A stretch of 27,817 nucleotides of DNA from an uncultured Anaerolineae bacterium. Its GTDB lineage: Bacteria; Chloroflexota; Anaerolineae; B4-G1; DUEL01. The DNA lies in contig CALDFY010000047.1 in NCBI GenBank assembly GCA_937942115.1, positions 1-27,817 of the forward strand, given 5' to 3'. Shown here in pieces: positions 3,251-5,573 of this stretch. The notes under the pieces were generated by a model that was not told the DNA's origin, ran no database searches, and saw only the letters and a list, made by a program, of their open reading frames with translations. The translations under genes and the position numbers were made by a program. Numbering within the stretch: position 1 is the first letter of the stretch; every line of letters begins with the position of its first letter.

Positions 3251-3660
3251 AAAAGGTCGAGAGTATCGTGGCCGTCCTGCTGGGCCTGACCGGGCTGGGA
3301 ACGCTCATCTTTTGGATTGCGTTCGCTCTGGAGAACCCTCAGGAGTCCTTTCTGGCCCAGATATATCCGGCGTGGTATCCCTGGGAGCGTTCGTTCATCG
3401 TCGCCGACGGCTGGATGATTGTGGCCGCTTTCGTCGGTGCCTACGGACTGTTGCGGCGGCGGCCGTGGGGTCGGCACTGGGCCGGTATGGCCGGCAGCGC
3501 TATGCTCTTCCTGGCCCTGATGGACATTCTCTTCTTCCTTCAGAACGGCCTTTACCTGCATCCACACCCGGAAGTCCTCATGGAGGCCCTGATTCACCTC
3601 TGGCTGCTGGGGTTGGGGATCGCCCTGATAATCTTCACCGCCCGGGCGGTAGGGAAATGA
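3232..3660 (+). CDS. Small integral membrane protein (about 4 TM helices), function unknown
   Basis: Four hydrophobic segments and host-like codon style. Overlaps the cysS stop and the next gene's start (ATGA at 3657-3660). Start uncertain. Confidence 0.75.
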   Translation: MAAGNLKKVESIVAVLLGLTGLGTLIFWIAFALENPQESFLAQIYPAWYPWERSFIVADGWMIVAAFVGAYGLLRRRPWGRHWAGMAGSAMLFLALMDILFFLQNGLYLHPHPEVLMEALIHLWLLGLGIALIIFTARAVGK

Positions 3661-5573
3661 TGGTTTGGAGAGACCGTCTGTATTGCAAATCCTGCGAACG
3701 AATGGAGGAGGTGCCGGACGATGCGATAGAACTGGTGGTGACCAGCCCACCGTACTGGAACGCGATTGATTACGAACAGCATGTGGAGGACCCCACCGCC
3801 TGGTACCGAACCCGTAGGGGAGGCCCGTATGAGGAGTATCTGGACTGGCTGCAGCGGTGCTTTAGAGAAGTCCAACGAGTGCTCAAGCCGGGTGGTTTCT
3901 GTGCGGTGGTGATGGGGACGGTGCTGTTCAACGGTCAGCACTACCCGGTCCGTCATGACTTCACGAACCTGATGACTTCACTGGGATACTTGTTTCACGA
4001 CGAGATCATCTGGCACAAAGTTACCGGAGGGGTCAAGCGGGCCGGAGTAACGATTCAGAACCCTTATCCGGGTTATTATTACCCGAACATTATGACAGAA
4101 TCCATCCTGATTTTTCGCAAGCCCGGCCCTCCGATTCACCAAAGGCGGACTATTACAGATAAAGAAGGGGCGGCCTTTGAGATTGACGAACTCTTCAAGC
4201 GGGAAATTGCCAATAATGTCTGGCACATTGCCCCGGTGCCCCCTAACACTCTCCCGCACCCTTGCCCTTTTCCGGAAGAAATCCCGTACCGGCTGATCCG
4301 TTTGTTCTCTTATCCCGGCGATACGGTTCTGGACCCTTTTATCGGCATTGGGACAACGGCCAAAGTGGCCCGCGCGCTGGGCCGCCATTACGTTGGATAC
4401 GATGTTCAACCGAAGTACATAGAAATCGCTCAAAAGCGAATTCACGAACCCCTCCATCTTCGCCAGCAGCTGGTCGCCGTCTTTGAGAAAGTCCCCGTGC
4501 AGGACCGGGACTACATCTATGGACAGGTAAAGCCTCAGCAGATGACTTTCCCCTTTGTGTCGGTACGTGAAGGAAGCGCACTATATCAGGTAGGGAAAGG
4601 AGATAAAGCGGATTATCGCTGGATTCGGGAACGGTTCCCGTGGTTAGACGAGCCAGGCCGCCGGATGATCTGCAGCCTGGACCTGGATGGCGTGGTCTCT
4701 GCGATGCTGATGGAAACCCTGTTAAACTGGCGTTTGGTTGGTTTCTACGATGCCCAGTATCTCTGGGTGACAGCCGATGCGGACTTTCAATCGGGAGATG
4801 TCGTCTTTCTGGATCATGATATTTACCGGAAGGAAATCCCCAGTGTTGGGCATCATGTTCTCCAGTGGCAGGACGACATTGCCCTTCCGGAGCATGAGCG
4901 ATCCCTGAATCCTAACCTGTTGCGGGGTGTGACGGCAGAAAAGGGGTTCAATCGCAAATATCCGTTCGGGACGCTGCATTTGCTCCTGGCCTGCCACAGC
5001 GCATGGCACCCGGAGTTACGGGAAACAAAATTGTGCCTTTCCCGAAATTTCCTACCGATTCTGCTCAATGTGGATTCCGCTATGCAGAGCGCGTTCACTT
5101 ATTTACGCAACGCGATGGAGTGGCTGGAATGGTTGGGGGGCTCGGATGAAGATTCCCCTCTTTATCCTTTCTGCCGCCTTCTTCTCTCTGCATCTCCCCG
5201 CAGGCTACTGGAATGGGGTATCCAATTTGACGATGAAATGATGCGGCTGGGGTTGGGTACTGGCTCTCCATACACTCGGCGAAGAGCCCAGGCACAACGG
5301 TTGAACCCGACTCAACAGGCAGATTGGGAGCGGCTTGGTGGACTGGTCCAATGGCTGCAGGAACGTTCGCCATGGTTCCTCACTATGCCCGAATTCCCCG
5401 CTCTGGCAGCACAAGGGGAATTGCAGGTCATTGAGCTCTCTCGTAAATCTGTTAAGCCGACAAAGGGGCACTTCAAGGCAATGCTGGCTCAGGACCCTTT
5501 CTCCTACGCCATTATTTCTAAGGGTGAGAACGGTTTGAACTACTCGTTATTTACGGATCGCACGAATTTTTAG
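3657..5573 (+). CDS. Site-specific amino-DNA methyltransferase (beta class, N4-C/N6-A) fused to a C-terminal DHH/RecJ-like domain, 638 aa
   Basis: LVVTSPPYW catalytic motif precedes VLDPFIGIGTT SAM-binding motif (beta order). C-terminal half has DLDGVVSA, VVFLD, VGHH and LNPN in DHH-family order. Start ATG 3657 is coupled to the upstream stop. Confidence 0.85.
   Translation: MMVWRDRLYCKSCERMEEVPDDAIELVVTSPPYWNAIDYEQHVEDPTAWYRTRRGGPYEEYLDWLQRCFREVQRVLKPGGFCAVVMGTVLFNGQHYPVRHDFTNLMTSLGYLFHDEIIWHKVTGGVKRAGVTIQNPYPGYYYPNIMTESILIFRKPGPPIHQRRTITDKEGAAFEIDELFKREIANNVWHIAPVPPNTLPHPCPFPEEIPYRLIRLFSYPGDTVLDPFIGIGTTAKVARALGRHYVGYDVQPKYIEIAQKRIHEPLHLRQQLVAVFEKVPVQDRDYIYGQVKPQQMTFPFVSVREGSALYQVGKGDKADYRWIRERFPWLDEPGRRMICSLDLDGVVSAMLMETLLNWRLVGFYDAQYLWVTADADFQSGDVVFLDHDIYRKEIPSVGHHVLQWQDDIALPEHERSLNPNLLRGVTAEKGFNRKYPFGTLHLLLACHSAWHPELRETKLCLSRNFLPILLNVDSAMQSAFTYLRNAMEWLEWLGGSDEDSPLYPFCRLLLSASPRRLLEWGIQFDDEMMRLGLGTGSPYTRRRAQAQRLNPTQQADWERLGGLVQWLQERSPWFLTMPEFPALAAQGELQVIELSRKSVKPTKGHFKAMLAQDPFSYAIISKGENGLNYSLFTDRTNF

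Follow-up and report, generated by a model that had tools for sequence, protein, structure and literature searches.

A candidate single-chain restriction-modification enzyme with a DHH-like nuclease domain in an uncultured Anaerolineae bacterium

We analysed a stretch of 27,817 nucleotides from an uncultured Anaerolineae bacterium of the phylum Chloroflexota (GenBank assembly GCA_937942115.1, contig CALDFY010000047.1, forward strand), referred to below as the window. Between cysS, which encodes cysteine-tRNA ligase, and rlmB, which encodes a 23S rRNA 2'-O-methyltransferase, the window contains a gene (3657-5573, plus strand) whose product consists of a beta-class DNA methyltransferase (MTase), a linker and a two-lobed domain that resembles the DHH/RecJ phosphoesterases. 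The gene had been singled out in an earlier reading of the letters alone, termed here the original prediction, as a fusion that might act in defence or DNA processing. Translation confirms the open reading frame (ORF) of 638 amino acids (aa) without internal stop that was described there. The ORF list carries this frame further upstream, to a TTG at 3312, but comparison with homologs supports an ATG at 3657 or 3660 as the start. All features discussed in the text are listed in Table 1.

The N-terminal half is readily recognized. Residues 24-260 match the Pfam family PF01555 with an E-value of 3e-42 (145.4 bits, compared to a cut-off of 26.7), and the PADLOC model MTase_II matches the same domain at 2e-70. 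Sequence matches in the PDB include the Thermus methylase TTHA0409 (2zie, 8e-35) and the N4-cytosine MTase 8s9m (6e-17). Moreover, the SPPY motif precedes the FxGxG motif, which is the order expected for the beta class and the one that had been read originally for residues ~1-265. SPPY is regarded as a signature of MTases that produce N4-methylcytosine, m4C (PMC10855626, PMC10406627). Since motif IV of the window protein reads SPPY, with Ser in the first position, its MTase half is probably specific for N4 of cytosine.

For residues ~316-638, on the other hand, no match was found in Pfam, NCBIfam, PADLOC, PHROGs or the PDB sequences, and the seven or eight stand-alone homologs that were scanned likewise gave no match in the first four collections. 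An AlphaFold model of residues 300-638, built from a 19-sequence alignment, has a predicted local distance difference test score (pLDDT) of 86.5 and a predicted template modelling score (pTM) of 0.88, whereby its first 14 residues (300-313 of the protein) score below 50. When this model was compared with the PDB by Foldseek, the scores were weak (E ~1e-3, TM-scores 0.2-0.3), but nearly all of the top ~50 matches were DHH proteins, namely RecJ-Cdc45, RecJ, DhhP, NrnA, PAP phosphatase, family II pyrophosphatase, GdpP and Cdc45; RecJ2 and PggH are further DHH structures among the top matches of the two fold searches. In VIA-align the top 26 rows all belong to the DHH superfamily (Z 7.2-4.5) and span both lobes (model residues 16-330), below which the list drops to unrelated Rossmann-like folds with Z ~3. 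A model of the first lobe alone, made with AlphaFold 2 (AF2) from 66 sequences (pLDDT 94.6, pTM 0.91), gave the same result: the top 27 rows in VIA-align are all DHH superfamily members (Z 8.2-4.1), with the alignment in every case running through the catalytic DHH domain at the N-terminus, and Foldseek probabilities reach 0.97 (RecJ-Cdc45, DhhP). Because both lists are purely DHH at the top and a gap in score lies beneath, we consider the predicted fold to be DHH-like. In the Atlas, one homolog led to clusters without names and to MYG1_exonuc as a weak lead (0.80). None of the known restriction endonuclease (REase) superfamilies, i.e. PD-(D/E)xK, HNH, GIY-YIG, PLD and half-pipe, is found among the listed fold, Pfam or PADLOC matches, and PADLOC has nothing on the C-terminal domain. 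This agrees with the original prediction, which had recognized no PD-(D/E)xK, HNH or GIY-YIG nuclease in the protein or nearby and had proposed modelling and PADLOC searches to clarify its C-terminal half.

Table 1. Features of the fusion gene and its surroundings, and an example of the divergent gene pair. Positions refer to the window unless a locus is named.
Feature	Position	Strand	Basis or remark
Whole fusion gene	3657..5573	+	638 aa and stop; beta-class DNA MTase, linker, DHH-like two-lobed domain
MTase domain, residues 1-265	3657..4451	+	PF01555 N6_N4_Mtase; motif IV precedes motif I (beta class)
SPPY, catalytic motif IV, residues 30-33	3744..3755	+	Ser form typical of N4-cytosine MTases
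FIGIG, S-adenosylmethionine-binding motif I (FxGxG), residues 228-232	4338..4352	+	motif read in translation
Linker, residues ~266-315	4452..4601	+	conserved among fused homologs
DHH-like catalytic lobe, residues 316-534	4602..5258	+	AF2 model, VIA-align and Foldseek
SLDLDG, equivalent of DHH motif I (D342, D344), residues 340-345	4674..4691	+	end of strand beta-1; D/D in 70/70
VVFLDHD, equivalent of motif II (D386, D/E388), residues 382-388	4800..4820	+	beta-strand end; D386 in 75/75
SVGHH, equivalent of motif III, residues 396-400	4842..4856	+	G398 and H400 invariant; H399 is H, Q or N
Family-specific block LNPNLLR (N420, R423) and KYPFGT (K434)	4905..4973	+	N420 and K434 each in 75/75
NVDS (D473), probable equivalent of motif IV	5067..5078	+	76/76
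Second lobe, residues 535-638, at DHHA1 position	5259..5570	+	conserved PFSYAI...GLNY block, no GGGH
Presence/absence segment, 1934 bp	3675..5608	.	flank blastn and border alignment; missing in congeners G002 and G005
Stretch deleted in congener G011, 238 nt, frameshifting	4502..4739	.	linker and motif I removed
cysS (cysteine-tRNA ligase)	1796..3250	+	flank, outside the system
Small ORF, 142 aa	3232..3660	+	flank; stop overlaps fusion start; also in genomes without fusion gene
rlmB (23S rRNA 2'-O-methyltransferase)	5616..6368	+	flank, outside the system
Divergent DHH-like gene and upstream PLD-family nuclease gene, example pair	L136:3572-4423 and 4424-5443

We then scored conservation in 76 intact canonical homologs taken from genomes, counting each position where it is aligned. 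No aligned canonical homolog departs from D342, D344, D386, D/E388, G398, H400, N420, K434 and D473. In the model the Asp residues of motifs I and II lie at strand ends, as they do in DHH enzymes. The four C-terminal motifs quoted in the original prediction, including LNPNLL at residues 417-422, are all present, and its motif I DxD, motif II Asp and motif III His proved to be conserved family-wide. It had also remarked that DHH reads GHH here; the residues are as stated, but this is not a local defect, since G-(H/Q/N)-H is invariant across the family. The NP that had been taken for a DHH motif, in contrast, is family-specific, and the likely equivalent of motif IV is D473, which aligns to the 'DT' of NrnA motif IV, if only in a non-significant hhalign comparison. 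Profile-profile comparisons with the NrnA-like and RecJ proteins of the same genome were not significant either (probability <=2.7%), and the NrnA/RecJ profile alignment, non-significant as it is, still pairs SLDLDG with motif I, VFLD with motif II and NVDS with motif IV. The family shares with the DHH superfamily (RecJ, archaeal RecJ/GAN/Cdc45, NrnA, DhhP, GdpP, family II pyrophosphatase) a two-lobed alpha/beta architecture with Asp-x-Asp after strand 1, a later strand-end Asp and a His-containing motif III after the next strand; D473 is a further conserved Asp at the probable place of motif IV. It differs in that it lacks detectable sequence homology, has G-x-H instead of D-H-H in motif III and no GGGH, carries extra conserved NPN and KYP blocks as well as helical insertions, and keeps genomic company with DNA MTases, not with genes of replication, repair or nucleotide turnover. 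Based on the models, the C-terminal half is best described as a strongly diverged DHH-like domain, which is not the same as a demonstrated member of the Pfam DHH family.

A fusion of this kind might be produced by a sequencing or assembly error that joins two genes, a caveat raised with the original prediction. The metagenome-assembled genome to which the window belongs is fragmented into 394 contigs and 83% complete, and in most family members the two parts are separate genes. However, a search of 5.8 billion proteins recovered 16 further full-length fusions of 609-642 aa, besides two stand-alone proteins, whose C-terminal parts are 44-83% identical to that of the window protein. These 16 fusions stem from independent assemblies and align end to end, linker included. 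Fused ORFs were moreover read directly in about ten other genomes (L022, L023, L025-L027, L029-L031, L034, L043). Since independent assemblies yield fusions that share a conserved linker, the fusion ORF is real, and we assign a joining error a vanishingly small probability.

To see the company that the domain keeps, its family was collected more widely. An exhaustive HMMER search of 1.84 billion representatives retrieved 386 cluster representatives at E<=1e-3, 182 of them at <=1e-10. Most members are stand-alone proteins of about 280-350 aa; every named homolog is labelled 'hypothetical protein', and some relatives carry the labels Thermoflexus or Thermoflexales. A scan of one genome per prokaryotic species yielded 80 loci in Chloroflexota, Armatimonadota, Elusimicrobiota, Planctomycetota, Patescibacteria, Clostridia, Mollicutes, and DPANN and methanogen archaea, and the 76 loci with an intact focal ORF were tallied. 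The unpublished genome G078 carries none of the conclusions drawn here. An MTase is fused or directly adjacent in 65 of these 76. The first tally had given 64 loci with a PF01555-type MTase: nine fused, 45 downstream and convergent, seven upstream on the same strand and three downstream on the same strand. It had left 12 loci without an MTase, five of them at contig ends; one of the 12, L043, was later shown to be a fusion. Motif IV of the partner MTase reads SPPY in 60 of the 64 loci. Within the taxonomic order of the window organism, all four stand-alone homologs that were checked lie directly downstream of a PF01555 MTase gene on the same strand. Homologs on viral contigs show the same pairing. 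Searches of the PLSDB plasmids and INPHARED phages by tblastn gave no match.

The order of the two genes varies. In a close relative (56% identity) at L028:1117-3086 the nuclease candidate (R) comes before the MTase (M), the reverse of the order in the fusion; the two genes share a strand and overlap by 4 nt. Gene order in this module is fluid. On a viral contig (L143:3977-7262) the DHH-like gene is followed by a 779-aa ORF on the same strand that has no match to an MTase hidden Markov model.

When all neighbours within three genes were clustered, just two families came up repeatedly, the MTase in 55 loci and a protein of ~75 aa in 18 loci, and no other nuclease recurs within this distance. 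The gene for the ~75-aa protein is located directly upstream of the DHH-like gene in 17 of its 18 loci. An HTH_3/Xre helix-turn-helix (HTH) domain was detected in 17 of the 24 small upstream ORFs that were scanned, and 0-5 nt separate the small HTH gene from the DHH-like gene. Furthermore, a conserved inverted repeat such as ATATTCC-N5-GGAATAT or ATCCC-N5-GGGAT precedes the small gene in about ten of 17 upstream regions, often accompanied by a second half-site. This repeat is a candidate C-box for the putative controller (C) proteins. Repeats of the form ATTCC-N5-GGAAT or ATCCC-N5-GGGAT occur ~20-60 nt before HTH genes at L049, L056, L059, L066, L070, L084, L091, L092, L095 and L064.

A C-R operon convergent with M is the layout of type II restriction-modification (R-M) systems controlled by C proteins (PMC1885659, PMC3488213, PMC4041747). 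By analogy, a C gene with its operator, then R, convergent with M, as found here, matches the layout of a controller-regulated type II R-M system. The window itself has no C gene or operator of this type. These neighbourhoods, with MTase adjacency in most loci and an HTH controller in a subset of loci, strongly support the suggestion in the original prediction that the domain is an unconventional restriction partner. Its notion of a single-gene system applies to the window, but the family as a whole mostly forms a module of two or three genes (M and R, with or without C).

Linkage to an MTase would be equally expected if the DHH-like domain were the nuclease partner of the MTase but acted as a RecJ-like exonuclease or nickase on unmethylated or incoming DNA, or in methylation-coupled repair. 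Indeed, the nearest structures are single-strand exonucleases and nanoRNases (RecJ, RecJ2, NrnA, DhhP), and a separate DNA-recognition domain is not evident. We nevertheless consider this unlikely. C-protein control and a convergent M gene are hallmarks of toxic, site-specific type II endonucleases, and an exonuclease would have no obvious means to read a sequence-specific methyl mark. Repair partners of the Vsr type go with 5-methylcytosine MTases; they are not known to accompany SPPY-type MTases or to be C-regulated.

The neighbourhoods also bear on the idea that the domain hydrolyses a small molecule or oligonucleotide (pAp, nanoRNA, a cyclic or linear dinucleotide, polyphosphate) in connection with methylation or signalling. 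NrnA, GdpP, PggH, PAP phosphatase and family II pyrophosphatase, all of which appear in the match lists, have such substrates, and the original prediction had offered a nucleotide-processing module as its second option. However, the recurrent neighbours are MTase and HTH genes only, which leaves that option unsupported. No chemistry ties these substrates to a DNA MTase, whose by-product S-adenosylhomocysteine is not a phosphoester, and the substrate-binding GGGH of DHHA1 is missing. Finally, a patchy, mobile and decay-prone distribution suits a conflict system better than metabolism. We regard this explanation as decidedly improbable.

This distribution is seen already among close relatives of the window organism. 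The GC content of the fusion gene is 0.54, compared to 0.61 for cysS, 0.67 for rlmB and 0.64 for the window. The gene was found in five of 13 other genomes of the genus, and in two of them (G003, G012) it sits at the same site, with cysS and rlmB on either side. In G002 and G005, by contrast, 23-39 bp separate the flanks, and the 1934 additional bases of the window are missing. The junction in G002 (L019:2255-2300) retains ATGAAGGATTGGAGAGAC, ~18 nt that look like the beginning of the fusion gene's coding sequence (M K D W R D). Because of this resemblance, G002 probably lost the gene by deletion, as opposed to having a never-occupied site, and the loss seems recent. The borders of the segment show no flanking direct or inverted repeats and no tRNA. 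No second gene travels with it, which makes the fusion a unit complete in itself. Since the preceding ORF ends in an overlap with the start of the fusion gene, we infer that the latter is transcribed from upstream.

In another congener, G011 (L024:117-1780), the 238-nt deletion leaves a 292-aa MTase with all its motifs and a decapitated DHH-like remnant; this is an orphan methylase in the making. The same asymmetry is found elsewhere in the family. At L098, L099 and L101 the DHH-like gene is split over two frames, at L069 it has in-frame stops and at the viral locus L142 it is split in two, and the adjacent MTase ORF is intact each time. Thus, at least six loci (G011, L069, L098, L099, L101, L142) have a broken DHH-like part next to an intact MTase. 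R-M systems commonly decay into orphan methylases.

A further branch of the family bears on the putative catalytic site. A divergent subfamily with six representatives lacks the His-His and the motif II Asp. At four loci (L135, L136, L138, L139) the gene for a PLD-family nuclease is located directly upstream of the divergent DHH-like gene; L135 and L136 have one protein in common, and L138 and L139 seem to be duplicates of a single locus. Two of these nucleases were scanned and match PLDc_2 (1e-13) and RE_NgoFVII (3e-5). No MTase is adjacent in the four loci, all of which are from metagenomes. A bona fide nuclease adjoins the scaffold that has lost its putative metal site, and no nuclease is found beside the scaffold with the site intact, which fits a catalytic site in the canonical branch. 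The scaffold probably has a second role in DNA binding or recognition, and the divergent pair may represent a separate two-gene defence or type IV-like system.

The existence of this branch, in which the scaffold works without an active site of its own, could also be taken to mean that the domain is non-catalytic throughout, i.e. a Cdc45-like DNA-binding, target-recognition or regulatory module, and that another protein cuts. Cdc45 proteins are among the top structural matches, and motif III without its Asp and the missing GGGH would be compatible with this. But the putative metal ligands are kept in every aligned homolog out of the 76 from the canonical subfamily, to which the window gene belongs, and no other nuclease recurs near these genes. 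Moreover, damage hits this domain selectively and spares the MTase, which is what one would expect of a costly activity, and beta-class MTases of this kind are known to work alone. A purely non-catalytic role therefore appears rather unlikely to us, somewhat more so than an exonuclease or nickase.

How does the system compare with known ones? With the C-controlled type II R-M systems (PvuII, BamHI, Esp1396I, AhdI, Kpn2I) the family has in common a beta-class amino-MTase plus one partner gene, a small HTH controller that is often directly upstream of the partner and behind an inverted-repeat operator, an M gene that is often convergent, a patchy mobile distribution and decay to orphan MTases. 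The MTases of PvuII and BamHI are also of the SPPY type. Unlike in those systems, the partner is DHH-like and has no known REase fold, motif, Pfam or PADLOC model, and in the window M and R form one polypeptide and there is no C gene. In this respect the fusion is reminiscent of type IIC/IIG enzymes (Eco57I, MmeI, BcgI), which combine restriction and modification in one chain, provided that the DHH-like domain is R; in either case separate control of timing would not be needed. In Eco57I, MmeI and BcgI a PD-(D/E)xK nuclease stands at the N-terminus, ahead of a gamma-class MTase and a target-recognition domain, whereas in the window protein a beta-class MTase comes first and the DHH-like domain second.

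The closest precedent for the line of argument is R.PabI, where an unannotated ORF linked to an MTase, present or absent between close genomes, revealed a restriction enzyme of a new fold (PMC10273834). The discovery logic is the same here, an ORF without annotation that moves together with an MTase and is found in some close genomes but not in others. Unlike R.PabI, a metal-independent glycosylase with a half-pipe fold, the DHH-like domain is likely a metal-dependent phosphodiesterase of the DHH type, and while R.PabI has been proven biochemically, the DHH-like family is known from sequence, model and context. The restriction enzyme superfamilies named in that review are PD-(D/E)xK, GIY-YIG, HNH, PLD and the PabI half-pipe. 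Our literature search, whose scope did not extend to putative R genes in REBASE, found no DHH- or RecJ-like restriction enzyme. R.DraR1, which belongs to an m4C system, is a GIY-YIG enzyme and hence unrelated.

Taken together, we favour the interpretation that this is a gene for a single-chain R-M enzyme with a nuclease of the DHH fold, and hold it to be probable. It is carried by the architecture of the protein, the DHH-like fold of the model, the conservation of the putative active site, the linkage of M, R and C genes, the presence/absence polymorphism, and the loci that lost R and kept M. In this sense the observation made in the original prediction is confirmed and its interpretation supported, with nuclease and anti-phage activity remaining putative. 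What would be new is the nuclease fold, in an R-M system of otherwise known layout.

Several points weigh against this interpretation. Known DHH enzymes are exonucleases, phosphoesterases of small substrates or, like Cdc45, non-catalytic, and to our knowledge none is a sequence-specific double-strand endonuclease. All named members of the family are annotated as hypothetical proteins. Residues 300-638 have no Pfam match at E<=0.1, DHH (PF01368) and DHHA1 included, and hhalign of the family profile against a 28-sequence NrnA alignment gave a non-significant probability of 2.5%; the DHH/RecJ-like label of the original prediction thus stands at the level of the fold, where DHH proteins top both searches, but not by sequence. 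The fold scores are middling (Z<=8.2, TM-scores 0.2-0.43, Foldseek E ~1e-3), and a Z of 7-8 by itself can arise from a chance arrangement. In motif III an invariant Gly replaces the Asp, and the second lobe has PFSxA...G where the GGGH of DHHA1 would be. In addition, six loci away from contig ends contain a DHH-like gene with conserved motifs but no adjacent MTase, L096 among them being truncated. Such solitary genes argue against a lethal nuclease, because a lone nuclease is not expected unless its MTase is encoded elsewhere. HTH-Xre genes also accompany toxin-antitoxin modules, and the frameshifts were seen in metagenome-assembled genomes and could be assembly errors. The solitary genes at L037, L040, L055, L090 and L100 keep all putative catalytic residues and lie among glycosidase, kinase and sulfatase genes.

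If the gene does encode a single-chain R-M enzyme, it might work as follows. The N-terminal MTase would mark a specific sequence in host DNA, probably at N4 of cytosine. The C-terminal DHH-like half would bind the same kind of site when it is unmethylated and hydrolyse the backbone, presumably as an endonuclease that cuts both strands, so that incoming phage DNA would be attacked and the cell protected. Hydrolysis would probably depend on two metal ions coordinated by D342 and D344 of motif I, D386 and D388 of motif II, H400 of motif III and D473 of motif IV. N420 and K434 would assist in binding phosphate, and the DNA would be covered by the second lobe much as substrates are by DHHA1 in RecJ and NrnA. 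In the two-gene relatives the C protein would delay R until M has acted. In the window M and R would be joined in one polypeptide, encoded by a lone low-GC accessory gene between cysS and rlmB, and both activities would appear together, as in other single-chain R-M enzymes.

Two further genes of the window may be mentioned. Upstream of cysS, and part of the ordinary context, a 405-aa ORF (565-1782, plus strand) has PIN (1e-6) and TRAM (9e-4) domains. On the minus strand (15622-19140), gyrB encodes a protein of 1172 aa with an intein near its N-terminus (Intein_splicing 1e-17) that includes a LAGLIDADG homing-endonuclease domain (LAGLIDADG_3 2e-8).

For the family as a whole, we lean, by a smaller degree than for the window gene, towards a broader proposal. 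The DHH/RecJ-like fold would constitute an unrecognized catalytic superfamily of restriction endonucleases beside PD-(D/E)xK, HNH, GIY-YIG, PLD and the PabI half-pipe, adding one to those named in PMC10273834. Its partners would be SPPY-type, probably m4C, MTases, it would be widespread in uncultivated lineages (Chloroflexota, Armatimonadota, Planctomycetota, Elusimicrobiota, bacteria of the Candidate Phyla Radiation (CPR), DPANN and other archaea, and some phages), and it would exist in C-regulated two-gene and in single-chain M-R forms, with a degenerate branch re-used as the partner of a PLD nuclease. The fused form would be a compact one-gene system. New specificities, possibly thermostable in view of the Thermoflexus and Thermoflexales labels, could serve as reagents. 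The family is invisible to Pfam, NCBIfam, PADLOC and PHROGs, and censuses therefore probably count its loci as orphan methyltransferases, which matters most for genomes of CPR bacteria, DPANN archaea and Chloroflexota. Finally, if the proposal is correct, the RecJ/Cdc45 scaffold, familiar from exonucleases, nanoRNases and replication factors, would be convertible into a methylation-sensitive weapon that targets DNA.

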